Below are positions 1-59,298 of a stretch of DNA of 64,000 bases, one piece after another. Below the pieces are notes generated by a model. The model was not told the DNA's origin. It saw only the letters and a list, made by a program, of their open reading frames with translations, and searched no databases. The stretch's first letter is position 1. Each line of letters begins with the position of its first letter. Location of the stretch: contig JAPXNA010000009.1 in assembly GCA_033808735.1 (NCBI GenBank), forward strand, positions 13,054 to 77,053. Direction: 5' to 3'. Source of the stretch: Fermentimonas sp. (GTDB taxonomy: Bacteria > Bacteroidota > Bacteroidia > Bacteroidales > Dysgonomonadaceae). A program made the position numbers and the translations under genes.

Positions 1-147
1 TTTGTTTCGGTGTATGGAACCTTTGATGTTCAAAATAATCATTCCCATGGATGTTTAACGATTATTTTAATCATGTCGGTTTCATACGATTATTTTACTC
101 TTTTACATTTTGGTGTATGGAACCTTTGATATTTAAAATAATCATTC
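1..147 (-). repeat. Mosaic of leader-repeat modules: partial A (1-24), palindromic spacer, hairpin module (53-85), full A element (78-124), spacer module (125-147)
   Basis: Direct reading. ggtgtatggaacc at 9-22 and again at 112-124, with ctttgatNttNaaaataatcattc after each. The A element ggtttcatacgattattttactcttttacattttggtgtatggaacc has 9/10 inverted ends. Confidence 0.85.
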
Positions 148-302
148 ACTAAAGTTAGACTATTTCTCGCCACGGCATAGTACAAGTGAACTTGTCCTCT
201 GCTCGTTTGGCTTAACGAAATAGTTCACTAAAGTTAGACTATTTCTCGCCACGGCATAGTACAAGTGAACTTGTCCTCTGCTCGTTTGGCTTAACGAAAT
301 AG
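145..302. repeat. Perfect tandem duplication of a 79-bp hairpin-forming unit
   Basis: 145-223 and 224-302 are identical base for base (ttcactaaagttagactatttctcgccacggcatagtacaagtgaacttgtcctctgctcgtttggcttaacgaaatag). Internal inverted repeats ACTATTTC/GAAATAGT, GCCA/TGGC and ACAAGT/ACTTGT. Confidence 0.95.
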
Positions 303-313
303 TTTTCAAGGGT

Positions 314-346
314 GTTTAATGATTATTTTAATCATGTCGGTTTCAT
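314..346 (-). repeat. Leader-repeat hairpin module (orphan copy)
   Basis: gtttaatgattattttaatcatgtcggtttcat is the same string as at 53-85 and 14369-14401. Confidence 0.8.
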
Positions 347-445
347 AATCATGTTGAATAATCTTTTTGCTTCCTTTATAGCGATTTGCCTTCTGAGTTC
401 CATCCCGTGATACCATTACATTATAATTAAACGGCAATGTTGTTT

Positions 446-8438: not shown

Positions 8439-9290
8439 CTATTTTTTAAAAGAATTTGAAACAAACGGTAAAGCAATGGATAGTGCAGAACTCCAGTATT
8501 TCCAGTCGTGATCACCATCCCGTACACGAAGTTCACACGGCACTTCAGCCTTTTTCATCTCCCTGAAAAATCGGGTGTTCGTATCCAACAAAAAGTCGTC
8601 ATCCCCGCAATCCACGAACCAGTCAATTGTACGTAATGCTTTCACTGTTTCTTCGTCCGCGTAAGAGATTAAGGCCACGCAATCGTTTGCCAATATCGAC
8701 CTCCCAAACTCCACCTGTTCGATATCCATGGTAGGACGTCGCACCGGTTTGGGTAATGACATAAGCGCGCTCATTGCATACACGGCAGTAAACATCTCCG
8801 GATGCTTTATAGCATAGGCTACAGCTCCACCGCCCCCCATTGAAAAACCCGCTATCGCCCGAGAGCATTTATCCCTAGATATTCGATATTTTGTCTCCAC
8901 GTGGGGTACAAACTCTTCAAAGAAGAATGTTTCATAATCCCACCCTTTGGTATCAAAGTAACCGTTCCGTATACTGCCGGCATCTGGAGTGATGATGATC
9001 ATTTCAGTTGACTTCCCGCTCTCCATTTTTTGGTCTGCTATCTCCTGTAGTTGACCATCATTAACCCAACCATTATTCCGATGGCTGTGACCATGAAGCA
9101 GATACAATACCGGGTAGGTTTTATTCGCTGATCGCGCGTAACTCTCGGGGAGGTAAACGGTATATTTACGGGTTACACCAAGCACGCTACTCGCTACACT
9201 ATCTTCTTTTACCTGGCTATTGGTTTGAGCTATTGCCGGGAAGAGTGAAAGCAAAAAGCACGATACCACTGCAACGATATATCTTTTCAT
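8439..9290 (-). CDS. Secreted alpha/beta-hydrolase, 'putative esterase' family
   Basis: 283 aa with a signal peptide. VLYLLHGH oxyanion region and nucleophile elbow GFSMGGGGA. The start codon lies inside a leader-repeat copy. Confidence 0.75.
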   Translation of the reverse strand: MKRYIVAVVSCFLLSLFPAIAQTNSQVKEDSVASSVLGVTRKYTVYLPESYARSANKTYPVLYLLHGHSHRNNGWVNDGQLQEIADQKMESGKSTEMIIITPDAGSIRNGYFDTKGWDYETFFFEEFVPHVETKYRISRDKCSRAIAGFSMGGGGAVAYAIKHPEMFTAVYAMSALMSLPKPVRRPTMDIEQVEFGRSILANDCVALISYADEETVKALRTIDWFVDCGDDDFLLDTNTRFFREMKKAEVPCELRVRDGDHDWKYWSSALSIALPFVSNSFKK

Positions 9291-9329
9291 ACGATTAAAA
9301 CTATTATTTTCAAATGTATCGTATGGAAC
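9288..9329 (-). repeat. Leader-repeat A element, diverged copy containing the esterase start codon
   Basis: catacgattaaaactattattttcaaatgtatcgtatggaac. The central segment is inverted relative to the consensus, which creates TACATTTG on the gene strand. Confidence 0.7.
9311..9318 (-). promoter_or_regulatory. Candidate Bacteroidota -7 box TACATTTG upstream of the esterase gene
   Basis: The + strand caaatgta is TAnnTTTG on the gene strand, 20 nt before the ATG. Confidence 0.35.
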
Positions 9330-9370
9330 TCGCTTTAATCATTGTCATGGGTGTAAATGGTTTACATGCT

Positions 9371-9417
9371 CGTTTCATACGGTTATTTTACTCTTTTACA
9401 TTTCGGTGTATGGAACT
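9371..9417 (-). repeat. Leader-repeat A element, orphan copy
   Basis: cgtttcatacggttattttactcttttacatttcggtgtatggaac, near-consensus. Confidence 0.85.
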
Positions 9418-9493
9418 ATTCCGTTAAGCCAAATGAGCATTGGACAAGTTTACTTGGGCAAGGCCATGGCGAGGAATAGTCTAATTTTATAAA
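9416..9493. repeat. Inverted, ~80% similar copy of the 79-bp unit found at 145-302
   Basis: ctattccgttaagccaaatgagcattggacaagtttacttgggcaaggccatggcgaggaatagtctaatttta aligns to the reverse complement of the 145-223 unit. The outer stem shows a compensatory change: CTATTCC/GGAATAG here versus CTATTTC/GAAATAG there. Confidence 0.85.
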
Positions 9494-9549
9494 CCTTTAA
9501 TGTTTGTTCCTTTAAGCGGCTATCCAACAGGCCTATACAAAGACTCATC

Positions 9550-13752: not shown

Positions 13753-14331
13753 TTAATTCACGAACAGCTTATGTTCAATCAATTGAATCATAATATGAAT
13801 CACCTTTATATGAATTTCCTGTATCCTATCTGAATAGTTGGTCCTTGGAGCACAGATCGAGAGATCCGACTTGGTTCGCAGTAAATTTTCCGAATCACAA
13901 GTCAAGCCGATAACGATCATTCCCTTTTTCTTCGCCGACTCACATGCCTTTAAGATGTTTTCAGAGTTTCCACTGGTACTAATCGCCAGGAGGATGTCTC
14001 CCTCTTGTCCAATGGCATCAACAAAACGGCTATAAATCTCCAAAAAGGAGTAGTCATTCCCTACGCAGGTAATATGCGCGGCATCATTAATCGCGATGGC
14101 GGGTAGTGGGATCCTGTCACTTCTAAACCTCCCCGTTAACTCTTCGGCGAAATGAGAAGCATCGCACAATGAACCTCCATTTCCGCAACAAATAACTTTG
14201 TTGCCGTTTTGTAAAGCTTTGGAAATAAGCGTTGCTCCGGTATTAATGGCTTGCAAGTTGGTCTCTTTAGCCATAAATTCCCGAAGGGAGTCAAGGGCTT
14301 CTTGCAAACTTTCTTTCACGATTACATTCAT
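13753..14331 (-). CDS. gmhA: D-sedoheptulose-7-phosphate isomerase (SIS domain)
   Basis: 192 aa. Matches E. coli GmhA along its whole length from memory: CCGNGGSLCDASHFAEELTGRF, ISTSGNS, SDRIQEIHIKVIHIMIQLIE. No signal peptide. Confidence 0.9.
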   Translation of the reverse strand: MNVIVKESLQEALDSLREFMAKETNLQAINTGATLISKALQNGNKVICCGNGGSLCDASHFAEELTGRFRSDRIPLPAIAINDAAHITCVGNDYSFLEIYSRFVDAIGQEGDILLAISTSGNSENILKACESAKKKGMIVIGLTCDSENLLRTKSDLSICAPRTNYSDRIQEIHIKVIHIMIQLIEHKLFVN

Positions 14332-14404
14332 ACGATTATTTTATTCTTTTACATTTCAGTGTATGGAACCGACATGATTATTTTAATCATGTCGGTTTCA
14401 TAGT
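14329..14404 (-). repeat. Leader-repeat A element plus perfect 12-bp-stem hairpin, containing the gmhA start codon
   Basis: catacgattattttattcttttacatttcagtgtatggaac followed by CCGACATGATTA-ttt-TAATCATGTCGG (14369-14395), then tttcat. Confidence 0.9.
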
Positions 14405-15418: not shown

Positions 15419-16438
15419 TTAATCGTTAAAATAGAACGTACAAGGCAAAACCAAGTTCTGAAGCTCGCTTGGTTCATCTGCATTTTTCTTCGTTTCGATA
15501 TCTTTCAACACGATATTCACGGCATTCTCCCCGATTTCTTTTACCGGCATTTCTGCCACATGAATGTTTGGGGCCAGTATCTCAAAGGTTGAGACGCTAT
15601 GAATGCAGGCTAACCCAAATCTCTCGTTGAAGTTTATCCCTTTTTTATGAAAATACAAAAAAGCCTCCAAGGCTAAAATATGTGTTGTGAAGAAAAACCC
15701 ATCCACATCGGGCTCTTTTTCAAAAATAGCATCAAGGGTATTAACCACATTCTGCTCGTAGTTTTCGTAAGCAACACACCCGATAAGATTTGGATTAATG
15801 GCTACACCTGCCCTCTCTAAAGCCTGCTTATAGCCATCCACCCTGAAACACATGGTTGTGAGGTGAGGGTTGGTGGTTATAATGGCTATCTTTCGACATC
15901 CTGTTTCTATTAGATGGCTTACCAGCTTGAAGCTGCTCTCCTTATTATCAACAATGATCGAGCTCATTTCCAATTCCGGGAAAAAACGGTCGAAAGTGAC
16001 TATCGGGAATCGCTCATTGATTAATTTCATTATTTCGTTTGTCGATTGTTTGGTTGGAGCAATGATTATCCCGTCCACTCCTTTCGACCTGAATGTGCGA
16101 AGCAGGTTTTCTTCTTTATCCGGTTTAGATTCGGAACTTGCGATCATCAGGGAATAACCATTATTACTCGCGTTTCGCTCAATCTCCCGAGCAATCGATG
16201 AATAGAAAAAGTCGGAAATTGAAGGAATAATCAAACCCAACGTTTTTGTTTTCCCAAGGTTCAAGCTACGGGCTATAAGGTTGGGTTGATAATTCATCTC
16301 AACGGCACACTTCATCACTAAATCCTGCGTGGGTTTACTGATACCCCTTCTATCACCGTTACCTGTCAACACCCATGAAACGGTCGTTTGGGACAAATTC
16401 AGCTTCTCGGCAATATCTTTTAGCGAAGTTCTCTTCAT
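15419..16438 (-). CDS. LacI-family transcriptional regulator
   Basis: N-terminal HTH MKRTSLKDIAEKLNLSQTTVSWVLTG...NYQPNLIARSL followed by a periplasmic-binding-protein-like sugar-binding core. The track ORF begins at a GTG at 16444; the ATG at 16438 is more likely. Confidence 0.9.
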   Translation of the reverse strand: MKRTSLKDIAEKLNLSQTTVSWVLTGNGDRRGISKPTQDLVMKCAVEMNYQPNLIARSLNLGKTKTLGLIIPSISDFFYSSIAREIERNASNNGYSLMIASSESKPDKEENLLRTFRSKGVDGIIIAPTKQSTNEIMKLINERFPIVTFDRFFPELEMSSIIVDNKESSFKLVSHLIETGCRKIAIITTNPHLTTMCFRVDGYKQALERAGVAINPNLIGCVAYENYEQNVVNTLDAIFEKEPDVDGFFFTTHILALEAFLYFHKKGINFNERFGLACIHSVSTFEILAPNIHVAEMPVKEIGENAVNIVLKDIETKKNADEPSELQNLVLPCTFYFND

Positions 16439-16506
16439 GCTCACGGCTCATTTGGTGAATTGTGTGAAAAATCAGGTCATTACTTTAACGCTAAAGTTCA
16501 ATGAAA

Positions 16507-16514
16507 CAAATATA
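16507..16514 (-). promoter_or_regulatory. Candidate -7 box TATATTTG for the LacI-family gene
   Basis: The + strand caaatata is TAnnTTTG on the gene strand, about 65 nt upstream of the ATG at 16438. Confidence 0.45.
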
Positions 16515-16517
16515 GGG

Positions 16518-16544
16518 AAATGTTTCATGAAAAAAGAAACATTT
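16518..16544. promoter_or_regulatory. Inverted repeat AAATGTTTC-N9-GAAACATTT with nested palindrome TTTCATGAAA; candidate operator (or weak terminator)
   Basis: Read directly. It abuts the candidate -7 box of the LacI-family gene. Confidence 0.4.
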
Positions 16545-16608
16545 AGCTACTTTTCGCACCTTCTCATGTATACCTTGTCATTTCTCCATTATTCACAACC
16601 CTGAGCGT

Positions 16609-17727
16609 TTAAGGGTAAGGACGATACTTAGGGTCATCTGAAGTAAATGAATGAGGGATGGTGATCCTGTAAAGAAACCTACCCGTTTCCAATCGTACCC
16701 AGGTATCGAACACCTCTTCAGACTCGGTCAACTCAATAACGCGCGCACCTCTGCAAAGAGCATGATAAGCATTGAGCCCGCCGGAATAATGGCCATAAGC
16801 AAGTGCGATACCTTGATGAAGGACTACGTATGAATTATCATGGTCATGACCAACAAAGACACCCTTGACATCGCCACACTCCAGGAAGGCAGAAAAAAGG
16901 CCTGAATTGTATGCGCCCACGCCTTCACCGCTATCCATTCGCCAGCCCAATATTTTCGCGTTAGGAGCAGTGGCTGCTATTCTGTACTCATGCAGCGGAA
17001 TGTGAAAGAAAGCGATAGCCGGATACGGTACCCCGTTGTTTCCCTTGGTAAGCTCTGTGCTTTGCCTTACGTACCAGGCTATCTGGTTGCTTCGTATCCA
17101 GTCATCTTTGTTTGCCAAATTAGGCAAATTATGATAATCGTTTGAATCGAAAAGGTAAAGGATGTTGGCTTTCTCGTTTGGGTTGTCTGACTTATAGATA
17201 GGTATCACCTGGTTCGTGTACCCGTACACTTCCTCAACCGATTCCTTTTTGGGCTCATTAAGACACCCTTTTAATCCGGTCACGATCTCATAGATCTTAT
17301 CTCGTGTCACCTTGCCTTCAGCATCGTGGTTCCCTAGCGTGACGGCAAAAGGGATGTTTCGAGAAGAAGCGATACCGGTAACTTTTTCCCAGAGAGCCTT
17401 AGGGTTCTCATCGCTCGTAACGATGTCACCTGTATACATCACCAAGTCGGGCTTTTCGATATCCAGGATTCGGTTCATGATATCGTAAGCATGATCGGTT
17501 TCCCCCTTTTTCTCGATGGCATGTACATCCGTGAATTGAACGATTTTGAACTTTCCCTCCTTATTGAAAAAGAGTTTTTTTCTCGTCGAATCAACACGGC
17601 TTTGCTCTCCGGTCACATATGGAGACAGCGTCTGGGATGATACCACTGAGGATGAAAGCCCCAGGGCACCGGCCGCTAATGCCGTTTTCTTGATAAAGCC
17701 CCTTCTGTCTAACTCATTATTATTCAT
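16609..17727 (-). CDS. Twin-arginine exported calcineurin-like metallophosphoesterase
   Basis: 372 aa. TAT signal DRRGFIKKTALAAGALG. Motifs FTDVH, TGDIV, GNHD, GHDHDNSY. The start codon lies inside a leader-repeat copy. Confidence 0.85.
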   Translation of the reverse strand: MNNNELDRRGFIKKTALAAGALGLSSSVVSSQTLSPYVTGEQSRVDSTRKKLFFNKEGKFKIVQFTDVHAIEKKGETDHAYDIMNRILDIEKPDLVMYTGDIVTSDENPKALWEKVTGIASSRNIPFAVTLGNHDAEGKVTRDKIYEIVTGLKGCLNEPKKESVEEVYGYTNQVIPIYKSDNPNEKANILYLFDSNDYHNLPNLANKDDWIRSNQIAWYVRQSTELTKGNNGVPYPAIAFFHIPLHEYRIAATAPNAKILGWRMDSGEGVGAYNSGLFSAFLECGDVKGVFVGHDHDNSYVVLHQGIALAYGHYSGGLNAYHALCRGARVIELTESEEVFDTWVRLETGRFLYRITIPHSFTSDDPKYRPYP

Positions 17728-17763
17728 ACGATTATTTTATCTTTTTTGTATCGGTGTATCGTG
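17725..17763 (-). repeat. Leader-repeat A element containing the metallophosphoesterase start codon
   Basis: catacgattattttatcttttttgtatcggtgtatcgtgc. Confidence 0.8.
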
Positions 17764-17775
17764 CTAAATTTGCTT

Positions 17776-20700: not shown

Positions 20701-20784
20701 CAACGGGGTAATCGTCTGCATCTGCGCAAAGAGGTGGCAACTCGTGAAAAGCAACATCACGATCAGGCTTCTCTTAAGAGACAT
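17776..20784 (-). CDS. GH2 beta-galactosidase-like (LacZ-type, with C-terminal small-chain domain)
   Basis: NHPCVIMWTIGNEND (acid/base NE) and VIFTEYAHALG (nucleophile). C-terminal GDGPYPSHPDKHA small-chain-like motif. The track ORF starts at a GTG at 20844. The signal-peptide-compatible ATG (MSLKRSLIVMLLF...) is at 20784. Confidence 0.88.
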   Translation of the reverse strand: MSLKRSLIVMLLFTSCHLFAQMQTITPLYADNQEILLNGSWKFKYIPGLYAGSDSLFFQDHFDTSSWSDIKVPGHWDLQGFAEPIYGLPEEALGLYVTCFEIPDSYMGRQVFIKLEGVLYGYDLYVNGRWAGNWESSYHAASFNITDLVKNGKNRMAVRVTTRSKGFEFDRCDNWALAGIFRDVSIFSLPNTYIDDYTVTTSLNGDESATVRVVTEIKNNSNVLVEDLALRMLLYAPDGGLVGEDLTKIQANPSSRELTVKNPRLWNAEEPVLYHLKLQLLKDGILSQEVNQKVGIREIAIVDEVLMLNNKPLKLKGVNYHDLSPETGKYMTEEQLITDLLLMKKANINFIRTSHNPPERRKLELCDSLGFYVSDEMPYAFGSEHMWDPTFREVMLKRAKATVLRDKNHPCVIMWTIGNENDIVRHTVHAGKFVKELDPTRPISYAGTGDLSTIPDFADIYSPHYPSAQWVRDYKGEAKRPVIFTEYAHALGLSFGNQEEIWKEIFKDKHIAGGAVWHFQDQGITHKSESEVDTTKLTYDVWIDSVTYYKSTLEGTDGIVYSDRTPQTDYWQLRKVYSPVQIVTKELPLYPGEQRLKLVVYNQFDFTNLNALQGKWELFRNRELYQQGDLTIDCAPHDTTTLLLPVTLPREVADDVWLLKFSFSDKNQFDICEHTVNLVSEQRYQGIKYALRQRIHESRLKIKNNTDSSVSISGKNCLYEMKNESITLSLLVKGNKIPVITQGVLARVGREPIMADVVSRDRYYADEKNYFWDPFLLYASKTQSKTIQRDIDGYRCITQAVFPRVGELYDGEQIEGDIEYTINQKGELVVNFDLHPVNVSGFFLNAGVSLMLDPGITNFRWLGDGPYPSHPDKHALSDFGIYQMKKGDLHFNGNRRNVEMAAFTDDDGNGIAILCDSANIAVEVKNGQMVVSYNSMVSGVGNKKIMPTVLHKANEVEQIKGTFVVIPLTAGNWPKEIQNILGYPDKSVKVNNPFYYSFDSSK

Positions 20785-20856: not shown

Positions 20857-21624
20857 CTAATTCAACAACTCCTTCAAACAGGAGACACAGTTGGTTTCGA
20901 TTCCATCCAAACCGAGTCCCAACAATCTTTTCGCATCGCGAGGGTCATCCACCGTCCAGGCGTTTATGCTCATGGATAGGCTATGTACGTAGTCAACTAT
21001 TTCTTGATTGATCAGCGAGTGTCTCATATCGATGGCATCAATACCCTTCAGCGCGGCCTTTTTAATGTTTTCTTTCAAGCCCTCTTCATCGCCAATCAGG
21101 TAGTGACAGCTATGGTCTGGGAACATCTCTTTCGCGGTGACTATCACATCGTAATCAAAGCAGATTATTGCCAGGTTACCTTTCGTGGTACTTTCATTGA
21201 TGGCCTTTTGAAGGTAAGGGAGTCCCTCCAGACCACATTTCAGTTCTATGTATAATGTTTTCGCGGGGGGTACCATCTCGATGATCTCTTCAAGGAAAGG
21301 GATTCTCTCATTTTTGTATTGCTCACCCTTGAAGGATCCAACATCCAACATCCTCAATATATCAGACACGGTATCTTCAACACGGTAGTCTTCTCCCGAG
21401 GTTCGCTTTGTATTGGAGTCATGAATAACCATCAACCGGTTATCCTTTGACAGGTGTACATCGATTTCCACGGCATCAGCCCCCTGTTCCCAGGCAAGCT
21501 TTACCGACGCTTTAGTATTCTCGGGGGCGTGGAGCGAAGATCCCCTGTGTGAACTAAACTCCACCTGGGCGCATACTCCTTGGCTTAAGCCAATCACAAA
21601 CATCGCGAGTAAAACTTTTTTCAT
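20857..21624 (-). CDS. Glycerophosphodiester phosphodiesterase (GDPD family), secreted
   Basis: 255 aa with a signal peptide. HRGSSLHAPENT and EIDVHLSKDNRLMVIHD catalytic motifs. The start codon lies inside a leader-repeat copy. Confidence 0.9.
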   Translation of the reverse strand: MKKVLLAMFVIGLSQGVCAQVEFSSHRGSSLHAPENTKASVKLAWEQGADAVEIDVHLSKDNRLMVIHDSNTKRTSGEDYRVEDTVSDILRMLDVGSFKGEQYKNERIPFLEEIIEMVPPAKTLYIELKCGLEGLPYLQKAINESTTKGNLAIICFDYDVIVTAKEMFPDHSCHYLIGDEEGLKENIKKAALKGIDAIDMRHSLINQEIVDYVHSLSMSINAWTVDDPRDAKRLLGLGLDGIETNCVSCLKELLN

Positions 21625-21674
21625 ACGATTATTTTATCTTTTTTGATTCGGTGTATGAAACCTGTCGGTTTCAT
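21622..21674 (-). repeat. Leader-repeat A element plus remnant of the hairpin module, containing the GDPD start codon
   Basis: catacgattattttatcttttttgattcggtgtatgaaacctgtcggtttcat. Confidence 0.85.
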
Positions 21675-36140: not shown

Positions 36141-37820
36141 TTATTTTCCATGTATCACAACGTCAACCTCCTTACCATCAGGTGATATGGTCATGACTAC
36201 CTTTCTGTTCCCCTTGAAGCGGAATACAATTTCATTATCATTCCCGATCCATGGTGTTACCATCTCTTTCACCGCGTCACCAGCCATATCGTCGGTGATA
36301 ATCCATTTACCTTTTCCACTATTGAAGGCCTGGGTACCCCCCTCGTATTGGTCAACCAACTCCCGGGGTGCGAAACGGCTGGAGGTGACAACGACAAGTC
36401 CGTTCTCACGAACGAGAAGCCCAACATCTTCCAAGGTCCCCTCACTCATAAACAATCCACACAGGAAGGCAAGCTTCACCGTACCCAGATGCTCCTTCCT
36501 CACGGAATCATCATAGACTACCACCGAGTTAGCCGGGGCAAAACAGCGGTAAGGCATCCCTTCGTACACATTGCCCGCGTTCCAGGAAAGGCTCTCCTTT
36601 TTCACCATCCCATGCGTGATGGTATGCCAAGCCTTAATCCACTCTTCCGACTCGGGGCTCGTGCGAAGGTCGTAAGCACCGAAAAGCCAATCTTTCCAGT
36701 ACAGGTTCACTTTTTCATCGCCATCATCAACCGTGCAATAGGTCTCAGGACCCTGCCCCCATTGCGTATCATCAAAACGAATAATCGCGATCTCCGGTTC
36801 CAGGTCCCTAAACGTGTAGGGACGCGGATGGTTAGGCACGTACTCTTTAGCAAAACGGCTCAACGCCTTGCCCCTTTCTTGCAAGGTCAATCGACCATGG
36901 TCATCAATGTCATACGTATGTTTTCCAACGCTCTCCACGTAAGCCTTATCTACCCCGGCCCAGTAAGCGAACAGAAGGTTCGACCACAACGATTCTGCAG
37001 AGTGTCCCGGGTAGTTATTGTAATGCCAGAAGTCGATACACGACCATAACTCTTGATCATACTGCAAAGAGGCTCCCATGGCACAAGAGGCCCAAACATT
37101 CGACCAATTCTCCTTCATTTGCTTGTATACGGGTGTAATCCCCGCTCGGGCGAAATTATGGAAAAGCACGGGCCATACATGCTCACCCAATACCTGTTGA
37201 TAACCTTCACTGCTGCATTCATCGACCAATGATTTCGCACCCTGGTAAACCGCGTTGTCGGCCGATTTAAAATCCATGCCGGTTGTTTCTGCCAGGCTCA
37301 CCAACTCAACCCCCGGGTGCCTGAGGGTGATGGATAAGTTGCGGGTAATTTGTGAATGTTCCAGTTCATCGTACTGTATCCCCCAAACGGCATCCGATTG
37401 GGCCAAGCTTTTCAGCACCAAAGGAGGGAATTTAAACAGGTGCATGCTGTCGGGTTGGCTCACCCACTCGTACCCATCCTCGCCCTTCATCTCCAACCTC
37501 CAGTTCCCACATTCCACGTTAACCACGACCTTCAGCCCGGCAGCGGCAAAATCGGCGCCCAGCTTCTCCATCTTCTTGGCTTCATCCTCAACCGTCCCTG
37601 TCGGTCCACCGTAATGGTAAACCACAAATTCAACGCCCAAAGAGTCCATCGCCACAGGATTAAAGAACTCACCGGGATTGGTTTTATCGCCGGAGTTGTC
37701 AATCCCAATGTAGAAATTCTTGTCGTTGGACACTCCCTCTCTATCGTGGCAGCCCGTTAAAATAGAGAGCAACAAAATAGCAAAGGGAAATATCCTCTTG
37801 TAGTTAACACTGATTTTCAT
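36141..37820 (-). CDS. Hypothetical lipoprotein (~560 aa), candidate uncharacterised glycan-active enzyme
   Basis: The track ORF extends to 37841. The ATG at 37820 is preceded by the leader-repeat core (catacgatta) and gives MKISVNYKRIFPFAILLLSILTGCHD. I recognise no family. Confidence 0.6.
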   Translation of the reverse strand: MKISVNYKRIFPFAILLLSILTGCHDREGVSNDKNFYIGIDNSGDKTNPGEFFNPVAMDSLGVEFVVYHYGGPTGTVEDEAKKMEKLGADFAAAGLKVVVNVECGNWRLEMKGEDGYEWVSQPDSMHLFKFPPLVLKSLAQSDAVWGIQYDELEHSQITRNLSITLRHPGVELVSLAETTGMDFKSADNAVYQGAKSLVDECSSEGYQQVLGEHVWPVLFHNFARAGITPVYKQMKENWSNVWASCAMGASLQYDQELWSCIDFWHYNNYPGHSAESLWSNLLFAYWAGVDKAYVESVGKHTYDIDDHGRLTLQERGKALSRFAKEYVPNHPRPYTFRDLEPEIAIIRFDDTQWGQGPETYCTVDDGDEKVNLYWKDWLFGAYDLRTSPESEEWIKAWHTITHGMVKKESLSWNAGNVYEGMPYRCFAPANSVVVYDDSVRKEHLGTVKLAFLCGLFMSEGTLEDVGLLVRENGLVVVTSSRFAPRELVDQYEGGTQAFNSGKGKWIITDDMAGDAVKEMVTPWIGNDNEIVFRFKGNRKVVMTISPDGKEVDVVIHGK

Positions 37821-37921
37821 ACGATTAAACATTATACACACTCAGTCATTTTTTTTACTCCAAAGAGTTTTCTCAAGGTACTAACGTTACCCTGATACCC
37901 GGCGTAATCTCTTGTAATAAG

Positions 37922-49800: not shown

Positions 49801-49934
49801 GTTTCAGCCTGCACGACCTGCACGTGAAAAACGTGCAGAAACAAAAGCAGGAGCGACATCCTCATAGCGATGAGTGTCTTATTACAAAAAATAGTAAAGA
49901 GACGTGCTTTTTGGTCGACTGTTTTACTTTGCAT
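46863..49934 (-). CDS. susC: SusC-type TonB-dependent transporter (module iii)
   Basis: 1023 aa. The first ~130 mature residues are ~80% identical by eye to module ii SusC (TGTVVDATGLPVIGANVIEIGTTNGTVTDVDGKFSL...), and the barrel is much more diverged. Ends ...FSVRFVF. Confidence 0.92.
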   Translation of the reverse strand: MQSKTVDQKARLFTIFCNKTLIAMRMSLLLLFLHVFHVQVVQAETPYSQAASVAEAMQQRKTVTGTVVDATGLPVIGANVIEIGTTNGTVTDVDGKFSLSVANNATIRITYIGYLEQDVSTTGRTSFDITLVEDTKALDEVVVVGYGTVRKSDLTGAIGSVSASKIANVPQTGVTSLLQGKVAGVNITSISGAGDMQIRVRGTTSLNKSNEPLWVVDGVIGAPAPSNPNDIESIQVLKDASATSIYGSQGANGVILVTTKRAQEGTHVVVDTRMVWNTLAKEPDLMSPYEYARAYNEVNGAGSISDADMSAYKAGTKGVDWLDQMIRTGFVQKYNINVSGGNPKTQYYVTGTMSDNKAQYVTVESRDYTVKGGLTTQIAPWLKFNGFLYSSFNKGHNRVPTDAFNDIYMYSPTLDLMDENGVYSLDPYNSIHNNPYAEVMANYTDRRSHSNSLFGDVIFTIADGLTFSSQGLYTQGAYWDKRFESSTISPGSIAFANNYDSHSSTLRNINNLTYDTFFGGQDHHLTATAVAEFSKSKGYGTSFTTQGISNETTTYWNVAAGTNINGSSSFSNSALSSFLGRVNYSFRGKYLLTATLRADGASELSKENRWALFPSIGLGWNLHEERFFNKDLVNQLKIRASYGTIGNHAVSPYETYARLEFNNRGASYGTQTGYTGYWPAGASNPDLRWEKTAQYNVGVDLALLQSRMTLTADFYIKKTTDLLFQKSLPTYYGGGSVWVNQGEIRNEGAEFTLNVIPVDNKQFAWESTLTAAYNKNTVVDLAGEDFIIPDEGRGSLYSGGVFILKKDAPVGMFYLYDWAGFSDEGVNMFYTKDGGTTNMLNTENRKAIGKTIPDWVFGWNNSLRYKDWDLNALFRFTSRFDRLNVGRYVGTAMSGPSRFFTMREGYYRSWEHVADKKNALYASLTNAINQNTPNSTQFLEDGTFLRLQNLSLGYTFVKGKARVADIRLGLSIENLFVITGYTGLDPETVSETNHEGSQDSVFGLDRGSMPMPRAYTFSVRFVF

Positions 49935-50038
49935 ACAATTATTTTATATTAATATTAGAAAGTACATGGAACCTCTGATGTTTACAACAATCATCCTTAA
50001 GGGTATTTAATGATCGCTTCAACCGTGTCAGCTCCATA
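49932..50038 (-). repeat. Diverged composite leader-repeat (A plus spacer plus hairpin-module remnants) containing the SusC(iii) start codon
   Basis: catacaattattttatattaatattagaaagtacatggaac has the same 41-nt length and the same ends as the consensus. It is followed by ctctgatgtttacaacaatcatcc and ...gtatttaatgatcgc...ccatac. Confidence 0.6.
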
Positions 50039-50381
50039 CTTATAGATTGACTTTACTTTTAAATTCAACTAGTGTTCAACTATTTGCGTTCATGCCCACT
50101 GATACTCACCAGATCATCAATCTCTCGTATAATGTGATTGACAGCTAGCCATCTTAACCCAAGACAGGCTTCGCCTTGAAAGCAGAAATAGTGATAAACA
50201 GCATGTGAAAAATGAATACGCTATTAATTTTACCGCGAAACTACCATATAAATATTACGTTCCAATTACATATTTGTTAAGTATTGGTTGCGATTGCCAT
50301 AGCCTGGCTATAAGTGCGCATCGTCGCATTATGTTACATTTCCACAGGGACTCCTCCCTGTTTTTATCACCAACCGGGTGA

Positions 50382-50637: not shown

Positions 50638-52089
50638 TTAGTCAAGTCCGGCAACGGCAAAGAACTCCCCTCGCTTCATGAGTTTATAGATATCTTCTCC
50701 CGGGTAAGATTTAAAAAGAATTTGCAGTGTTGCCTCCTTAGGTGAAAGCACGTAAAAACTCCCGTTCATGAAAACGCGCCCCTTATCATCCGCGGCCAAC
50801 GAGTTAATGAACCTGCATGCACGACCTTCATGATCAACGATTTTCCCGTGATCCACCACTTTTTGGTCGAGACCCTCGGTTATTGAAACGCTTCTCAAAT
50901 GGAGGCTTTCGTCGTACCCAACGACGTCAGGATCTCTTTCCCGTTCAAATTCCGCGCCTTTCGTTCGCTCATCCATAAGATCCGCGTATTGAACAAAGTA
51001 AACCCTATCGCCCCCCAATGCCGTATGCAAGAAGGTAGATCCAATGTAGGCTATCGGCTCGAACGCTTCGCCGGATTCAATGTTTTTCGACGGGTCAAAA
51101 ACCCATAACCTCTCATCACCGCCACCCCAGGTCCCCATGGTAAACAGACACTTTTTGTTTCCACTCCCGGGTAATACGTCAGACCACGTCCAAGCACGCT
51201 CCTTCCTGTAGGATTCCTCGGTTACCGGTGTCCCATCAATATACTCCCCGTAGGGCAATACGTCATGGTAGACTTCAATCTTATCCAGGGAGGGGCGGTA
51301 ACAATACAAGTTACCGTTATCATTTTCATAAAAAGGTTGATAAGGACCAGATTTGCTATCATCGTCCAGATGCTGATTCCTTTTCCATAACGTGAACCAA
51401 CAGTTGCCCTCGTGATCGATGAAAAAGGTCTTCGATGCCGCGCTACGTTTTTCTGCCACCAAGCCTAGGTCCCTCATCTCACCCGTCTCTATATCTACGC
51501 TATAAAGATGACTCCCATCAGCCTCTACCAGCTCATCCAAAAAGGGCACCACGAAAACATACAACTTTTTTCTAACCGGGTCGATATTAATCGCGGAGTA
51601 GGTTGAATACCTCGGGCGAATAATCCCGAAGTCCTTAAACTTCCCGGTTTTCATCTCGTATCCCACGGCATGAGCACCCGTGTAGTCTGCAATACCTTTT
51701 GGCCAATAATTAGAGAGATGGGTCGTAAAATAGAGCCACCCATCGAGTTCAACGATCGGGCTATGAATTTTTCCCTGCTGTGAAGGGGTATTCTCTTCGC
51801 CAAGAACCACGGTCATATCTTCCGCCAGTAGGGTGTGGACTTTTGTTTCGGGATCGAACTTGTGAAACCCTGCACCATGGGCAGAGGAGTGGGTAGAGGT
51901 GCCAAAATAACAGTTCCCATCGGAAGCAACGGTCATGCCCTGCCACTGTCCATCCCATTCTTTACAAATCTTGTTCATAGAGACCGAATAAACTTCACAT
52001 ATTTTCTCTCTCTTTTGTTGGGCGTTACATGATGAAACGACGCCATTCAAAACTAAAAAAATCAGCAAGGGTCTAATTACAGGTTTCAT
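50638..52089 (-). CDS. Secreted hypothetical protein, probable beta-propeller
   Basis: 483 aa with a signal peptide. Recurrent blade-like strings (DGNCYFGT, DGWLYFTT, KLYVFVV, EGNCWFTL, GNLYCYRP, DRVYFVQ, GRVFMNG). No family recognised. Confidence 0.6.
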   Translation of the reverse strand: MKPVIRPLLIFLVLNGVVSSCNAQQKREKICEVYSVSMNKICKEWDGQWQGMTVASDGNCYFGTSTHSSAHGAGFHKFDPETKVHTLLAEDMTVVLGEENTPSQQGKIHSPIVELDGWLYFTTHLSNYWPKGIADYTGAHAVGYEMKTGKFKDFGIIRPRYSTYSAINIDPVRKKLYVFVVPFLDELVEADGSHLYSVDIETGEMRDLGLVAEKRSAASKTFFIDHEGNCWFTLWKRNQHLDDDSKSGPYQPFYENDNGNLYCYRPSLDKIEVYHDVLPYGEYIDGTPVTEESYRKERAWTWSDVLPGSGNKKCLFTMGTWGGGDERLWVFDPSKNIESGEAFEPIAYIGSTFLHTALGGDRVYFVQYADLMDERTKGAEFERERDPDVVGYDESLHLRSVSITEGLDQKVVDHGKIVDHEGRACRFINSLAADDKGRVFMNGSFYVLSPKEATLQILFKSYPGEDIYKLMKRGEFFAVAGLD

Positions 52090-52122
52090 ACGATTTTTTA
52101 TTTTTACATTTATACTTCAGCG
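52087..52122 (-). repeat. Partial leader-repeat A element containing the start codon of the 483-aa hypothetical gene
   Basis: catacgattttttatttttacatttatacttcagcg. Only the left half matches. Confidence 0.5.
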
Positions 52123-55035: not shown

Positions 55036-56376
55036 TCATGTCGTCAACTCTTTTTGGATTTGCTCCAAGGACTTGTTCTTCATTTCCGGAAGTTTCAAGG
55101 CGAAAACAAAGCTTAAAGCCATCATAACCGCGAAAAAGCCGAATATAACGGCACCACCTGTTCCTATGAAAACGGGGAACATCCAAGTCAATATAGCTGT
55201 CCAGGACCAATGTGTCATGCTACCAAGCACTTGCCCTTTTGAGCGAACTTTAGTTGGGAACACTTCGGAAATAACAACCCATATGGTGGCCCCCAGGGAA
55301 ATAGCGAAAAACGCGATGAAGCCCATCAAGCATACGAGCATATAGTACCCGGAAACAGCGTTCGTGGTAAATCCGTAAGCCACTAACGACAGGGCAATCG
55401 TCATACCCACCGAACCGATGTAAAGCAACTTTTTTCTCCCCACTTTGTCGATTAACACCATCCCAATCATCGTGAACACTAAGTTTGTGAGTCCAATGAT
55501 TATTGATTGTAGCATGGCCGAATCACGGAACAGCCCAGACATTTCAAAGATACGGGGAGCGTAGTACAGCACGACGTTAATCCCAGATAGTTGATTAAAG
55601 GTCGCAATTAAGAACGCGTAGAGAATAGGTTTTCTATATTTTTTCTGGAACAGTTTCCCGGCATCGTCGGTACTTGAAACCAAAGACAATTTAATCTCCT
55701 CGAGTTCCTTACCGGCGTTGATTTCATCCACTTTTTTCAACACGGTTTCCGCTTCACTTTCCCTCCCTTCTTTGACCAACCACCTGGGACTTTCAGGGAT
55801 AGTGAACAGGAGGATTCCGAATAATAGTGCCGGTAAAGCTAAAATCCCCAACATCCAGCGCCAATCATCAGGAATACCATGTAAAGAGTAATTGGAAAGG
55901 TAGGCTAAGACGATTCCCAGTACAATATTAAATTGAAAGAAAGCGACGAAACGTCCACGCCAATGAGAAGGGGATATCTCTGCTATATACATGGGACCCA
56001 CGACTGATGAAGCACCGACCGCTATCCCACCTAAAAACCTGAAAAAAACGAAAGAGTACCAATTGATGATAAGCGCGGTTCCAAGCGCGGAGAAGAAATA
56101 TAGGAACGCGATTACTTTCAACGCTTTAAGACGGCCAAACCGCTCAACCGGTTTGCTGCAAAAAAAGGCTCCTACAATCGTACCGATAAGAGCAATGGCA
56201 ATGGTAAAGCCATGTGCGAAATTCGACAGTTCGTAAATTTGTTGAACGGCTTTTTCAGCTCCCGAAATGACGGCGGTATCGAAACCGAAGAGCAACCCTC
56301 CTAGGGATGCGACGAAAGCGATGTAGAACACGTAAGGCTTAACTGAGTCACCTTGAGTGGTTTGTTTTGTTTTCAT
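55036..56376 (-). CDS. MFS sugar-porter family transporter (sugar:H+ symporter type)
   Basis: 446 aa with 12 hydrophobic segments. Sugar-porter signatures VERFGRLK, IPESPRWLVKEGR and PEMKNKSLEQIQ. Confidence 0.88.
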   Translation of the reverse strand: MKTKQTTQGDSVKPYVFYIAFVASLGGLLFGFDTAVISGAEKAVQQIYELSNFAHGFTIAIALIGTIVGAFFCSKPVERFGRLKALKVIAFLYFFSALGTALIINWYSFVFFRFLGGIAVGASSVVGPMYIAEISPSHWRGRFVAFFQFNIVLGIVLAYLSNYSLHGIPDDWRWMLGILALPALLFGILLFTIPESPRWLVKEGRESEAETVLKKVDEINAGKELEEIKLSLVSSTDDAGKLFQKKYRKPILYAFLIATFNQLSGINVVLYYAPRIFEMSGLFRDSAMLQSIIIGLTNLVFTMIGMVLIDKVGRKKLLYIGSVGMTIALSLVAYGFTTNAVSGYYMLVCLMGFIAFFAISLGATIWVVISEVFPTKVRSKGQVLGSMTHWSWTAILTWMFPVFIGTGGAVIFGFFAVMMALSFVFALKLPEMKNKSLEQIQKELTT

Positions 56377-56446
56377 ACGATTATTTTATTTTTCACATTT
56401 CGGTGTATGGAACCTTTGATGATTAAAATAATCATGTAGGTTTCAT
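56369..56446 (-). repeat. Leader-repeat A element plus palindromic spacer, containing the MFS transporter start codon and filling the GRE-MFS gap
   Basis: gttttcatacgattattttatttttcacatttcggtgtatggaacctttgatgattaaaataatcatgtaggtttcat. Confidence 0.9.
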
Positions 56447-56458
56447 AAAACTAATTAG

Positions 56459-58528
56459 TTAGAGTCCGAATTCAATTCTATTAATAATGTGATCTTGGTA
56501 ACATTCGTCAAGTTCTACGAAATAGCCGCTCCATCCCCAAACGCGCACGATTAGTTGCTTGTATCTATCCGGGTGTTTTTTCGCGTCGAGTAATTTTTCC
56601 AGGCTTACCGTGTTTAACTGCAATTGATGTCCTCCCAGTGTTATAAAGGTTTTCACCAACGCCCCCAGTTTCTCAATACTTTCGTCATCGCGGAAGACAT
56701 TTTGATCAAACTCCAACGTTAACGGTCCCCCGTTTATAACATTCAACAGGTCAGGTTTAGTAAATGATTTTATCACCGAGATAGGGCCTTTTTGTTTCAT
56801 GAAAAGCGATGGGGAATAGTTTGCCGGGATCATCTCCTCTTTTTTACGGCCATCGGGGGTAGCACCCAGGCTTGAAGCGTGCCACACGTAATACATGGCC
56901 GTACCTGTGCCCGCACGATATATCCCGCCCCGTTCGTTTCGTTTTGAGCGCAGTGTCTTATCAAAGGAGTTTAAAAGATCAATGGCTATGGCATCAACGT
57001 AATCGTTATCTTGACCCATTTTCGGGCTCTCTTCCCTAAGAAGTTGGAGTAGTTCCGGGTTGTTCTCAAAGTTATTTTCGAGGGCCTCTTTCAGGGTTTG
57101 TTGATCGATGCTCTTCTCTTCAAAATAATACTTCTTGAGGGCTGCTAACGAGTCTGCCGCCGTGGCGATTCCCGTACCGTGAATGCCGTAATTATTGTAC
57201 GTGGCGCCTAATGAAATATCTCTTGCACGTTCTATAGAACCATCCATCAATAGTGACATCATGGGTGATGGGATGATATACAGGTTCTTATGTTTTTCAC
57301 AAATTTCGTCCGCCTTTTCCTGCATTTTTTGTTCCACGATATCGTAAAAAGCCTCGTAGCTTACGCATTCACCTAGTTTGGGTAAGCTATCGTTTACGCA
57401 CTGGGGCAACGATAGACCATCTATATTTGGAATGTCTAAAGCATACTTGGGAATGATGAATTCCCAACACGCGGCAACGACGTAGTCGTACGCGTGATCT
57501 TTTTTGTACCCTTTTTTCATCAGCCCGGGGATAACAATATCATCGTTGCTGTACTGAGGGAATCCAAGACCTTTTCGAGTTAGCCTTGAACCTAAAATAT
57601 ATACTTCATCGGGGGTTTCTTTGTCAACACGGATGTTAATCTTGGGATCAATCAATGCCAGTTCGTAGCTAGCTAGCAGGCACATTTTTGAAAGATCGTT
57701 GAACATGTATTGCCCGTCTAAGCCGCGTCCCCCTAACACGATGCTTTGCCCGTTATCTCCCTGCTGCATTCCGGGATATAGGTCACTATCCTTGTTACAT
57801 GAAAGGAAGAACTCTTCTACCAAGTCAAACGCTTCGCTTTCTGTAATAACCCCCGTTTCTATATCTTTGGTGAAGTAGGGATACATGTATTGATCAAAAC
57901 GACCCAACGTGTTATGGTAGTTTCCCGCTGCCCACAAGGAGAAGTGCAAAACGCGTAATAATTGCAGCGCTTCCCTAAAGCTCTTTGCACCATTACATTG
58001 GATTGCTTTAAGAACATCTGCCGTGTCGGTATATCCTTTAGAGCGTGCATACTCTTCATACCTCCCGATTAACGCTTGGATCGCTTCAATACAGAGAAGG
58101 GTAGCTTTTAAAAAGGTCACTCCCTCTTGGTCAACGCTTTGATCGTTTAGTTTCTTTTCAATCTCTTTTTTCCTCGCGTTCAACCCTACTTTAATGGTTG
58201 TTTCGTAATCGGGTGAAAGGTTGCTGATCGTCCCTCGCTCATGAATGTAGTGTGTCCCTTTTATTTGTTCCCACTCGCTCGCCGTGAAAATATCGGGAAT
58301 TTCGCTTACGGTTCTCGTGAAAACAATGCTCTCGTTAGGAAGGATAACCGGTACTTCCTCGTTAAGAACGGCGGCAAGGCATAAAGCAGAGCGTTTCACG
58401 GGGTCCACATTGTTTTTCGCGAACGATTCATTGATGGTACTAATGCCAACCTCTTGACTACTCCTCCTGAACTGGTGATGTTTTTTATCCAGAAGGTATT
58501 CCTTAAGTTCTTTTATTGACGGTTTCAT
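56459..58528 (-). CDS. Glycyl-radical enzyme (PFL-like fold), short form, substrate unknown
   Basis: 689 aa. C-terminal glycyl-radical motif VRVWGWSGYFVEL (Gly665). Cys loop YDYVVAACWEF (Cys354-x-Glu356) preceded by GFPQYSNDD. The Cys-to-Gly spacing of ~311 aa is typical of GREs. There is a single Cys, not the CC of pyruvate formate-lyase. Confidence 0.88.
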   Translation of the reverse strand: MKPSIKELKEYLLDKKHHQFRRSSQEVGISTINESFAKNNVDPVKRSALCLAAVLNEEVPVILPNESIVFTRTVSEIPDIFTASEWEQIKGTHYIHERGTISNLSPDYETTIKVGLNARKKEIEKKLNDQSVDQEGVTFLKATLLCIEAIQALIGRYEEYARSKGYTDTADVLKAIQCNGAKSFREALQLLRVLHFSLWAAGNYHNTLGRFDQYMYPYFTKDIETGVITESEAFDLVEEFFLSCNKDSDLYPGMQQGDNGQSIVLGGRGLDGQYMFNDLSKMCLLASYELALIDPKINIRVDKETPDEVYILGSRLTRKGLGFPQYSNDDIVIPGLMKKGYKKDHAYDYVVAACWEFIIPKYALDIPNIDGLSLPQCVNDSLPKLGECVSYEAFYDIVEQKMQEKADEICEKHKNLYIIPSPMMSLLMDGSIERARDISLGATYNNYGIHGTGIATAADSLAALKKYYFEEKSIDQQTLKEALENNFENNPELLQLLREESPKMGQDNDYVDAIAIDLLNSFDKTLRSKRNERGGIYRAGTGTAMYYVWHASSLGATPDGRKKEEMIPANYSPSLFMKQKGPISVIKSFTKPDLLNVINGGPLTLEFDQNVFRDDESIEKLGALVKTFITLGGHQLQLNTVSLEKLLDAKKHPDRYKQLIVRVWGWSGYFVELDECYQDHIINRIEFGL

Positions 58529-59298
58529 AAGACTACTGTTTTTATGTTTAATTTTTCGAAGACGGTGTGATGTATTTCGGGTTTTCGTGTTGGATCAAAT
58601 AGTGGCGTGAATGTTTGTCCAATCATCGGGTACTTTGCTCCAGCCACTTGATTGTACGGCAACAATTCAACGCGTATCATTGATTTCGCGTTTTGAATTA
58701 GTTCGGCAATATTAAGCATATTTTCTTCACTATCGTTAACGCCGGGAATTAACGGTATCCTAATGATAAATTTCGTGGTTGAGGAGCACAAATAATCGAG
58801 GTTCTCTAAAATCAAATCATTTTCTACCCCCGTGTATTTTTTATGTACAACAGGGTCGGTATGCTTTACATCCATCATAACCAAATCGACTTTTTGGGTA
58901 ACCCTTTTGAAAATATCAGTCGAAGCATACCCGCTTGTTTCGATGGCTGTATGAACAGTGGGGGCGATTAAATCCAACACGGCGATTAAAAAATCTGATT
59001 GGAGCAATGGTTCGCCGCCCGTGAAGGTAACACCCCCCTGATTCATAGCGTATATATCCTTGTTCCTCAATATTTGGCTAGCCAGTTCTTCGGGTGAAAT
59101 TTCATAACCCGATGTAACTATCTGCCCGTTTTTCTTCTTCATCTTTTGAGGTTTCGGGGATATGCCCTCGGGATTATGGCACCATGTGCAACGCAACGGA
59201 CAGCCTTTCAAAAAAATAGTTGTTCGTATTCCAGGACCATCGTGGATTGCAAATTCCTCGATGCTGAATATCATTCCGTTTTTCATTACCTGTGGCAT
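58525..59298 (-). CDS. Glycyl-radical-enzyme activating enzyme (radical SAM, PflA-like minimal form)
   Basis: DGPGIRTTIFLKGCPLRCTWCHNPEG (CX3CX2C) and GGVTFTGGEPLL SAM motif. Only 4 Cys in total, so there is no auxiliary ferredoxin-like insert. Its stop overlaps the GRE start (ATGA). The track ORF starts at a GTG at 59313, with ATG candidates at 59298 and 59286. Confidence 0.88.
   Translation of the reverse strand: MPQVMKNGMIFSIEEFAIHDGPGIRTTIFLKGCPLRCTWCHNPEGISPKPQKMKKKNGQIVTSGYEISPEELASQILRNKDIYAMNQGGVTFTGGEPLLQSDFLIAVLDLIAPTVHTAIETSGYASTDIFKRVTQKVDLVMMDVKHTDPVVHKKYTGVENDLILENLDYLCSSTTKFIIRIPLIPGVNDSEENMLNIAELIQNAKSMIRVELLPYNQVAGAKYPMIGQTFTPLFDPTRKPEIHHTVFEKLNIKTVVL

Follow-up and report, generated by a model that had tools for sequence, protein, structure and literature searches.

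A short repeat that holds the start codons of unrelated genes in Fermentimonas sp. is best explained as a small, non-autonomous mobile element that homes on start codons in a sequence-directed manner and supplies a leader independent of Shine-Dalgarno (SD) pairing. We assign this reading a probability of about 0.7. The analysis concerns a 64,000-nucleotide stretch of one contig (the window) together with loci fetched for comparison, which carry L numbers where they have to be told apart.

The element is described on the minus strand, where every large open reading frame (ORF) of the window lies. A direct read of positions 14329-14404 gave CATACGATTATTTTATTCTTTTACATTTCAGTGTATGGAACC and then a perfect 12-bp stem, CCGACATGATTA-TTT-TAATCATGTCGG, at 14369-14395, just as the earlier note had reported. 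On the gene strand, the module that we term Y consists of GGTTCCATAC, a 27-nt A-rich spacer and CGT-ATG-AAA(CC). The window contains three nearly exact copies, along with some eight that are diverged or partial. When the 41-nt consensus was searched for with up to three mismatches, it recovered 83-123, 9376-9416 and 14329-14369 and found nothing in 100 shuffles, confirming the repeat. Repeat, Hamming and profile searches added the copies at 56374-56414, 21622-21662, 17725-17766 and 9284-9329, and the remaining diverged or partial ones at 52087-52113, 37818-37830, 49932-49975 and 1-21. All run in the direction of the genes, on the minus strand. The gene strand has ten occurrences of the 8-mer CGTATGAA and the opposite strand has one, and seven of the ten gene-strand copies open ORFs of 192-559 codons. 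The inverted-repeat ends claimed for the element, GGTTYCATAC/GTATGRAACC, are real as well, with GGTTCCATAC and GTATGAAACC matching at nine of ten positions. CGT does not precede the ATG of window genes that lack the repeat, indicating that CGT-ATG is not a general start-site consensus; a general Kozak-like signal was rejected on these grounds. Across the whole window, Rfam 15 at gathering thresholds returned zero matches and a tRNA/tmRNA scan found nothing.

Eight genes had been proposed to start inside the repeat. The ATG of Y is securely the start codon of seven of them. Read from the embedded ATG, the gmhA, esterase and MFS transporter proteins align residue by residue with repeat-free orthologues; the GmhA N-terminus MNVIVKESLQ, for example, aligns with MHDIVKDSLQ and MNEIIRDSLA. 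For the other four, the start is placed at the embedded ATG because targeting signals begin there: a Tat-type signal (RRGFIK) follows the embedded Met of the metallophosphoesterase, the GDPD signal peptide starts at it, and the 559-aa and 483-aa lipoprotein-like proteins both show a lipoprotein signal from it (lipobox-like in the 483-aa protein). The '566-aa' ORF probably starts at the ATG at 37820, giving a product of 559 aa. Pfam domains, where present, begin 20-60 residues into the element-started proteins; the 559-aa protein has no Pfam match. The eighth case, SusC (49934, ATGCAA), is doubtful: the copy is decayed, and an internal Met opens a signal-peptide-like stretch, which leaves the start uncertain. 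Orthologue N-termini and signal peptides thus place initiation at the embedded ATG and not downstream of the element, the outcome that the earlier note had named as contrary to its proposal. The copies are listed in Table 1.

Table 1. Copies of the repeat in the window and one site without it.
Feature	Coordinates	Strand	Start codon	Details
Module Y at gmhA	14329..14370	-	14331..14329 (gmhA)	GGTTCCATAC-ACTGAAATGTAAAAGAATAAAATAATC-GT-ATG
gmhA insertion, 70 nt (X hairpin + Y leader)	14332..14401	-		From orthologue comparison
Direct repeat ATGAA around gmhA insertion	left 14401..14397, right 14331..14327	-		Left ATG opens only a mini-ORF, MKPT*
X hairpin at gmhA	14362..14402	-		GTATGAAACC-GACATGATTAAAATAATCATGTC-GGTTCCATAC; perfect 12-bp core 14369-14395
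X+Y insertion, 70 nt, ahead of MFS sugar transporter	56377..56446	-	56376..56374	Flanks ATGAAA
Minimal 50-nt unit at GDPD	21625..21674	-	21624..21622	ATGAAACC-GACA-GGTTTCATAC + A-rich spacer + CGT
Decayed Y at metallophosphoesterase	17725..17766	-	17727..17725	5' arm degraded (AGCACGATAC); 3' part AAGATAAAATAATCGT-ATG intact
Mosaic at esterase	9284..9549	-	9290..9288	Spacer 9291-9549 = 259 nt; diverged Y 9284-9329, Z module 9322-9380, internal Y 9372-9417, S element 9418-9489, decayed X' remnant
Array truncated by window edge	1..347	-		Partial Y 1-21, X' 14-86, internal Y 79-124, X' with two tandem S elements (146-221, 225-300); left boundary ATGAAACC at 339-346
Partial Y at 483-aa lipoprotein-like gene	52087..52113	-		AAATGTAAAAATAAAAAATCGT-ATG-AAACC
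Y remnant at '566-aa' ORF	37818..37831	-	ATG 37820	TTTAATCGT-ATG-AAAA
Old decayed X'+Y element 5' of SusC	49932..50040	-		GTATGGAGC...GAGGTTCCATGT...AAAATAATTGT-ATG
Empty target site	58520..58531	-		cttATGAAACCG; activase stop codon overlaps PFL-like gene start

Five comparisons of filled and empty orthologous sites (gmhA, esterase, MFS, PFL-like gene and the S element described below) show insertion. The spacer ahead of gmhA measures 74 nt in the window and in L041, and 4 nt (stop-CACC-ATG) in L042 and L043; in L045 the stop and start codons overlap (ATGA). The filled site reads tgaTACT[ATGAA]ACC...CGT[ATGAA]TGTAATC, a gain of 70 nt. For the esterase, the spacer is a 259-nt mosaic in the window as opposed to 10 nt in the L044 orthologue (71% aa identity), and the start common to L044 and the window reads ATGAAAAGGTAT / ATGAAAAG. 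The MFS spacer is 82 nt in the window and 12-13 nt in L088 and L082-L087. The native leader in these empty sites is CTAATTAGTTTT, as in the window; in L088 it lies directly 5' of the ATG, and in the filled site it is followed by [ATGAAA]CC...70 nt...CGT[ATGAAA]ACAAAACAA. L088 comes from a Fermentimonas sp. MAG in which the genes flanking MFS are 96% identical in nucleotide sequence to those of the window; its empty MFS site has a variant of ATGAAACC, which may be an excision footprint. At the PFL-like gene the situation is reversed: the window site is empty, the activase stop overlapping the PFL-like start (cttATGAaaccg), and in L088 a 264-nt X'+S+Y+Z+Y array occupies the site, with the 9-nt direct repeat ATGAAACCG on either side. 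Such reciprocal presence and absence between near-identical genomes means recent gain or loss. The S element (79 nt) is present in L031 and absent from L021, at the junction of ...CCAAG and GTTCCATAC, with GTTC repeated.

At gmhA, the esterase, MFS and the PFL-like gene, the junctions sit exactly on the native ATG and the frame is kept, the break points being ambiguous within the repeated ATGAA. In the first three, the downstream ATG copy preserves the native N-terminus. Both simple insertions, at gmhA and MFS, are exactly 70 nt long. The flanking direct repeats are ATGAA, ATGAAA and of the ATGAACCG type (5, 6 and 9 nt). Their constant sequence and varying length argue for integration directed by the sequence ATGAA(ACC) and against a staggered cut with a fixed target-site duplication (TSD). 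This bears on an earlier suggestion that the repeat is a MITE donating an AT-rich leader plus start codon. The empty and filled sites at start codons agree with it; a strict DDE MITE does not fit, since the Y family has the terminal inverted repeats of such elements but a flanking repeat (ATGAA..., 5, 6 or 9 nt) that is not a TSD of fixed length set by the target.

The basic unit consists of ATGAAACC, a palindromic module, GGTTCCATAC, the 27-nt A-rich spacer and CGT. At the left edge of an array there is always unique flank followed by ATGAAACC, with a variable base preceding the ATG; the right end is always CGT-ATGAA. Between ATGAAAC and GTTCCATAC the modules fall into classes of 6 nt (CGACAG), 25-26 nt (X), 42-43 nt (Z), 58 nt (X') and 137 nt (X'+S), which give unit sizes of about 50, 70, 87, 103 and 182 nt. 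The 26-nt module corresponds to X' after loss of the stretch between two ATGATTA repeats. The arms of the hairpin, GTATGAAACC and GGTTCCATAC, contain an A.C mismatch on the sense strand (G.T on the antisense strand) that is kept in about 39 of 40 modules; within the window, only the GDPD unit has a module arm that is perfectly complementary (GGTTTCATAC). S is found in 37 copies in the fetched sequence, in both orientations and also in tandem, nearly always with GAAC in front of it and usually with GTGA at its end, A(C) coming next. The units nest into REP/BIME-like mosaics, and S, a separate 79-nt element, inserts into them. A REP/BIME-like mosaic had been one of the possibilities raised at the outset, and it is borne out by the way in which GTATGAAAC/GTTCCATAC units alternate, spaced by a few kinds of linker module and by the 27-nt Y spacer. 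The evidence supports the view that the mosaic and the leader-donating mobile element are one thing.

To look beyond the window, we used the 5' 24 nt of Y, which exclude the ATG, as a probe against one representative genome per species. The probe matched 40 loci, all within four Dysgonomonadaceae MAGs (Fermentimonas sp., Petrimonas sp., a Bacteroidales MAG and a 'Bacteroidetes' bin). CGT-ATG-AA is present at the same offset (+38) in 44 of 44 copies, 41 in the probe loci and three in the window; ATGAAA follows in 42 of the 44, and 33 open an ORF of at least 100 codons. A profile search parsed 64 Y copies, of which 12 were flagged as leading into another module and 52 classed as terminal, although four of the short-ORF copies in the terminal class actually have a Z module next. 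An ORF of at least 100 codons, or one running off the end of the locus, follows 41 of these 52 array-terminal copies. A background rate for 'ATGAA then at least 100 codons' (27%) counts internal in-frame Met codons and was therefore rejected as a null. Together with the seven of ten 8-mers in the window, these counts show that the repeat is strongly linked to gene starts and not spread at random with respect to them. The filled and empty sites and the census together demonstrate insertion and loss, precise junctions, orientation with the gene, start-codon association and nesting. The association with start codons could come in part from purifying selection against insertions at ATGAA inside genes, and not from recognition of starts as such.

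In sequence not chosen for the repeat, Y-derived leaders precede 8-9 of 37 window genes and two of 14 genes in L088. Overall, a repeat-derived leader opens roughly 15-25% of the genes sampled in these regions, about one in five. As far as sampled, the family is restricted to Fermentimonas, Petrimonas and related Dysgonomonadaceae: the repeat was not found in about 450 kb of other Bacteroidales loci, apart from remnants in L042, whose gmhA orthologue is 86% identical at the amino acid level. Y is kept at orthologous positions across genera in two sets of loci (L007/L035/L016 and L005/L017). In L015 and L028, different genes, each behind a Y array, lie between the same conserved neighbours. The 24-nt probe had no matches in viral contigs, and a phage vector is unsupported. 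Open-access papers searched by organism, concept and literal sequence do not describe the repeat.

The leader is A-rich and has no SD sequence. It carries A at -6, at -8 to -11, and at -13 and -14, and C at -3 in place of the favoured A, matching in part the determinants of Bacteroidia initiation measured in Flavobacterium johnsoniae (PMC6847099). The X hairpin is predicted to fold with -24.6 kcal/mol (z = -4.15). In the predicted structure only the 5' part of the unit folds, and the A-rich 27-nt spacer and the AUG are largely unpaired. The predicted probability that the AUG region is unpaired is 0.54 across 33 gene-linked copies, 0.52-0.54 for element-bearing genes and 0.47 for ordinary window genes. 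When the mismatch is repaired in silico to give a perfect stem, the predicted accessibility of the AUG falls from 0.54 to 0.27; the A.C mismatch therefore plausibly guards the start codon from occlusion. With accessibility judged no better than that of ordinary window genes, and with C at -3, the model gives no support for enhancement: the leader would be adequate but not exceptional, permitting translation. The Bacteroidia -7 box (TAnnTTTG) is absent from the sense strand of all modules, with only weak TAnnTTTH matches present, mostly on the antisense strand. A promoter role is unsupported, given this sense strand and the position of copies within operons. A chain of mini-ORFs across the X hairpin was considered as a conserved coupling device and dropped, because its frames are not the same in the gmhA and MFS copies.

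We read the insertion as follows. A unit integrates in one orientation at ATGAA(ACC) on the sense strand, in practice at gene starts of the form ATG-AAN (Met-Lys/Asn). The native ATG stays upstream beside the hairpin, opening only a mini-ORF, and the 3' ATGAA of the element joins in frame to codon 2 or 3, leaving the protein unchanged. Translation would then proceed from the largely unstructured, A-rich leader of about 40 nt supplied by the element, the type of leader on which Bacteroidia ribosomes rely in place of an SD site. Insertion would be tolerated even between tightly coupled or overlapping cistrons, because the unit comes with an SD-independent initiation region of its own and preserves the upstream stop and a start codon. 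Each inserted unit also brings new target-like sequences, so that more units and S insert into earlier ones, building REP/BIME-like arrays. As the mobilising enzyme we favour an HUH/Y1 protein that recognises single-stranded hairpins (RAYT or IS200-like) or a site-specific recombinase, and the internal TTCCATAC may act as the complement of the cleavage or target sequence at both junctions (GTATGAA). The strand-asymmetric imperfect palindrome, the single orientation, the constant junction motif and the internal TTCCATAC are also those of systems that recognise hairpins in single-stranded DNA, among them IS200/IS605 TnpA, RAYTs and attC/IntI. A search for ORFs with HUH/Y1 motifs in the window and all fetched loci, of which about 400 kb come from element-bearing genomes, gave no credible candidate, and no long element bounded by the repeat ends, a possible parent IS, was present in the fetched loci.

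A variant of this mechanism adds a regulatory function. The internal guide TTCCATAC would direct homing to ATGAA(ACC) starts in single-stranded DNA, the leader would be swapped, and the new leaders would then have been co-opted genome-wide for post-transcriptional control, through processing of the hairpin, coupling mediated by upstream ORFs or a trans-acting factor. We consider this extension possible but rather doubtful.

Another reading reverses the emphasis: Y would be a selected cis-regulatory leader that defines a regulon, either as a site of translational control or RNA processing or as the target of one sRNA or protein, with mobility serving only to recruit genes. It might, for example, be an RNase III substrate and 5' stabiliser, a role that could be compatible with the mobile element as an exaptation of it. 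The retention of Y at orthologous positions across genera is in keeping with selection, as are its strict orientation and distance to the ATG and the pattern of decay, in which the last 12-15 nt 5' of the ATG are the best preserved. The stable upstream hairpin and the conserved mismatch, which is predicted to leave the AUG accessible, point the same way, and there is a precedent in Neisseria, where REP2 marks a co-regulated gene set (PMC3184786). However, the genes served are unrelated (gmhA, esterase, phosphoesterase, GDPD, MFS, PFL, ackA-like and lipoproteins), presence and absence flip between genomes that are 96% identical, and orphan and internal copies are common. In addition, there is no Rfam match, the arms are too invariant for covariation to be assessed, and the sense strand lacks the -7 box. 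A regulon is thus an unlikely primary explanation, and the two regulatory suggestions of the earlier note would at most be secondary roles.

The start-codon-homing element has also to be set against a generic intergenic REP or MITE with no target preference, whose harmless copies survive 5' of genes. Orphans do occupy about 15-20% of terminal positions, and arrays occur downstream of genes too, as at 1-347. These facts do not account for junctions that lie exactly at the native ATG with the frame preserved (gmhA, esterase, MFS and PFL-like), for a direct repeat of constant sequence, for an orientation that always follows the gene, or for the CGT-ATGAA end of all 44 probe-selected copies, and this very improbable reading is largely refuted. 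It is just as hard to see the ATGAAAC...GTTCCAT modules as integron-like, ssDNA-folded tyrosine recombinase sites that shuffle genes as cassettes: the arms end in ...AAC and begin with GTT... as do the attC inverse-core and core sites, the central regions are palindromic and vary in length, the conserved mismatch could give strand selectivity and L015 and L028 place different genes behind Y arrays between the same neighbours, but the insertions are discrete (50-264 nt) and carry no ORF, the arms misfit RYYYAAC/GTTRRRY (ATGAAAC and GTTCCAT share only the AAC/GTT ends), and no array of promoterless cassettes is seen.

Several described repeats resemble the start-codon-homing element in part. Closest in position are Neisseria REP2 and the Borrelia plasmid IR, repeats whose promoter, ribosome-binding site and ATG are fused to ORFs (reviewed in Delihas, 2011; PMC3184786). 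Like Y, they are dispersed directly 5' of unrelated ORFs and provide 5'-UTR sequence, stem-loops and a fused ATG. They differ in carrying a promoter and an SD sequence and in numbering tens of copies, whereas Y has no recognisable Bacteroidia promoter or SD and is far denser (about 15-25% of sampled genes). Empty sites document the insertion of Y on ATGAA starts; neither REP2 nor the Borrelia IR has a demonstrated insertion mechanism or target. Mycobacterial MIRUs are intercistronic repeats with ORFs that overlap neighbouring genes (PMC3184786). They share with Y a size of 40-100 bp, a location between the cistrons of operons, co-orientation with genes and empty and filled sites with short direct repeats, and their small ORFs, which overlap the stop and start codons of flanking genes, are a further likeness to the Y family. 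MIRUs are unrelated in sequence, G+C-rich and present in about 40-50 copies, and no homing on start codons or replacement of leaders has been reported for them.

The E. coli REP/BIME and REPIN-RAYT systems have in common with Y short imperfect palindromes in transcribed extragenic DNA that alternate, use few linker types and are nested or clustered. It is plausible that Y is mobilised by an HUH enzyme that is present in single copy and acts on hairpins; among the recorded TnpA_REP subclasses, 2.6 is specific to Bacteroidetes and has 'atypical' flanking structures (PMC6006769). On the other hand, the GTAG/CGTC tag that is the hallmark of REPs and defines their classes (PMC3733652) is absent from the Y family, in which the foot of the palindrome is GTATG/CATAC. 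Stems of the Y family are A/T-rich and those of REPs G+C-rich, and REPs typically follow stop codons and do not supply the initiation codon, unlike Y, which sits on start codons. None of the fetched loci yielded a RAYT gene. The IS200/IS605-derived PATEs and the Correia elements are, like Y, small and hairpin-forming. PATEs insert strand-specifically beside a short specific motif, and Y has a single orientation and always abuts ATGAA, with break points ambiguous within the repeat; PATEs have a hairpin at each end, as IS200/IS605 elements do, and their 4-5-nt targets have no relation to starts, whereas the Y unit has one obvious hairpin, in its 5' part. Correia elements of Neisseria lie within transcription units and alter mRNA processing and expression, but have 26-bp terminal inverted repeats, duplicate TA and supply promoters, not start codons. 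Overall, the Y family shares start-codon fusion with REP2 and the Borrelia IR, intra-operon position with MIRUs and mosaic palindromes with BIMEs.

Repeats that carry a start codon have been rare curiosities, exemplified by Neisseria REP2 and the Borrelia IR. Y lands on an ATG and regenerates an ATG, in a lineage that initiates translation without SD pairing. The family thereby offers a tractable case of target-specific, probably hairpin-guided mobile DNA, and its leader is a candidate portable leader for engineering Bacteroidia. For the biogas-reactor Dysgonomonadaceae, the repeat bears on annotation, affecting start-codon calls, spurious small ORFs and assembly breaks. Its many copies amount to a natural, repeated experiment on what makes a sufficient initiation region in Bacteroidia.

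Most copies of Y, the repeat module with an A-rich leader that supplies a start codon, contain an AUG-UAA ('start-stop' mini-ORF) at positions -23 to -18 from that codon, for example at window 14349-14354. This is notable because AUG is reportedly depleted close to Bacteroidia start codons (PMC6847099). ACAAAA or TCAAAA replaces it at the same positions in some copies, indicating that the AUG-UAA is not essential in the Y leader. The minimal unit of approximately 49 nt, ATGAAACCGGTAGGTTCCATACACCGAAACATAAAAATAAAATAATCGT, is found in two and a half tandem copies upstream of a 452-aa gene in L088, a locus from a Fermentimonas MAG (20085-20198), which shows that this unit is itself capable of iteration. 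For the window ORF at 36141-37841, the mechanical start is GTG 37841, giving 566 aa; a Y remnant and a lipoprotein signal point to ATG 37820 as the probable real start (559 aa).

The insertion site at the start of the MFS sugar transporter gene is empty in L088, where positions 10001-10016 read ATGAAACCAAAACAA (Met-Lys-Pro). The right-hand copy in the window, 56376-56361, is ATGAAAACAAAACAA (Met-Lys-Thr), and L082, the locus of an 87% aa orthologue, is identical there. Since the C of the L088 empty site matches the element's left end, the site may once have been occupied and may now show the footprint of an excision or of a deletion from one flanking repeat to the other.

A 79-nt hairpin element, S (TATTYCGTTAAGCC...CTAACTTTAGTGAA), is distinct from the Y family modules and has no Rfam match. 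The window and the 40 Dysgonomonadaceae loci retrieved with a Y probe (L001-L040) hold 37 copies, flanked 5' by GAAC in nearly all cases and usually ending 3' in GTGA, then A(C). Insertions of S into the other modules occur in either orientation, and S is also found as tandem arrays with a 79-nt period; its apex, GTTCAC, is complementary to its own 3' end, GTGAAC.

A PUL segment is also duplicated in the window, with SusC paralogues approximately 79% identical over 297 nt. The duplication includes a conserved upstream region (...TTGTTGTACATTTG...) and a 76-nt repeat, 88% identical between copies, that is unrelated to the Y family and contains a G+C-rich hairpin, AAAGGGGCTGTCTC...GAGACAGCCCCTTT, resembling a terminator.

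Positions of S copies and duplicated PUL features in the window
Feature	First copy	Second copy	Third copy
S	146-221	225-300	9418-9489
PUL segment (SusC)	43291-43587	49468-49764	
76-nt repeat	44051-44126	50518-50593	

Within window 15419-21779, genes 16444, 17727, 20844 and 21624, two of which have Y leaders, are missing in the related loci L042 and L043, where the orthologue of gene 22661 lies directly upstream of that of gene 15389; L044 keeps one or more of these genes, the first among them. Conserved neighbours are common to L015 4797-6012 (Fermentimonas) and L028 1843-855 (Petrimonas); the secreted-protein genes between these neighbours are different or very diverged (319 versus 223 aa), each with its own Y array upstream. 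This comparison of L015 with L028 may hint that Y arrays mark recombination-prone or cassette-like sites.
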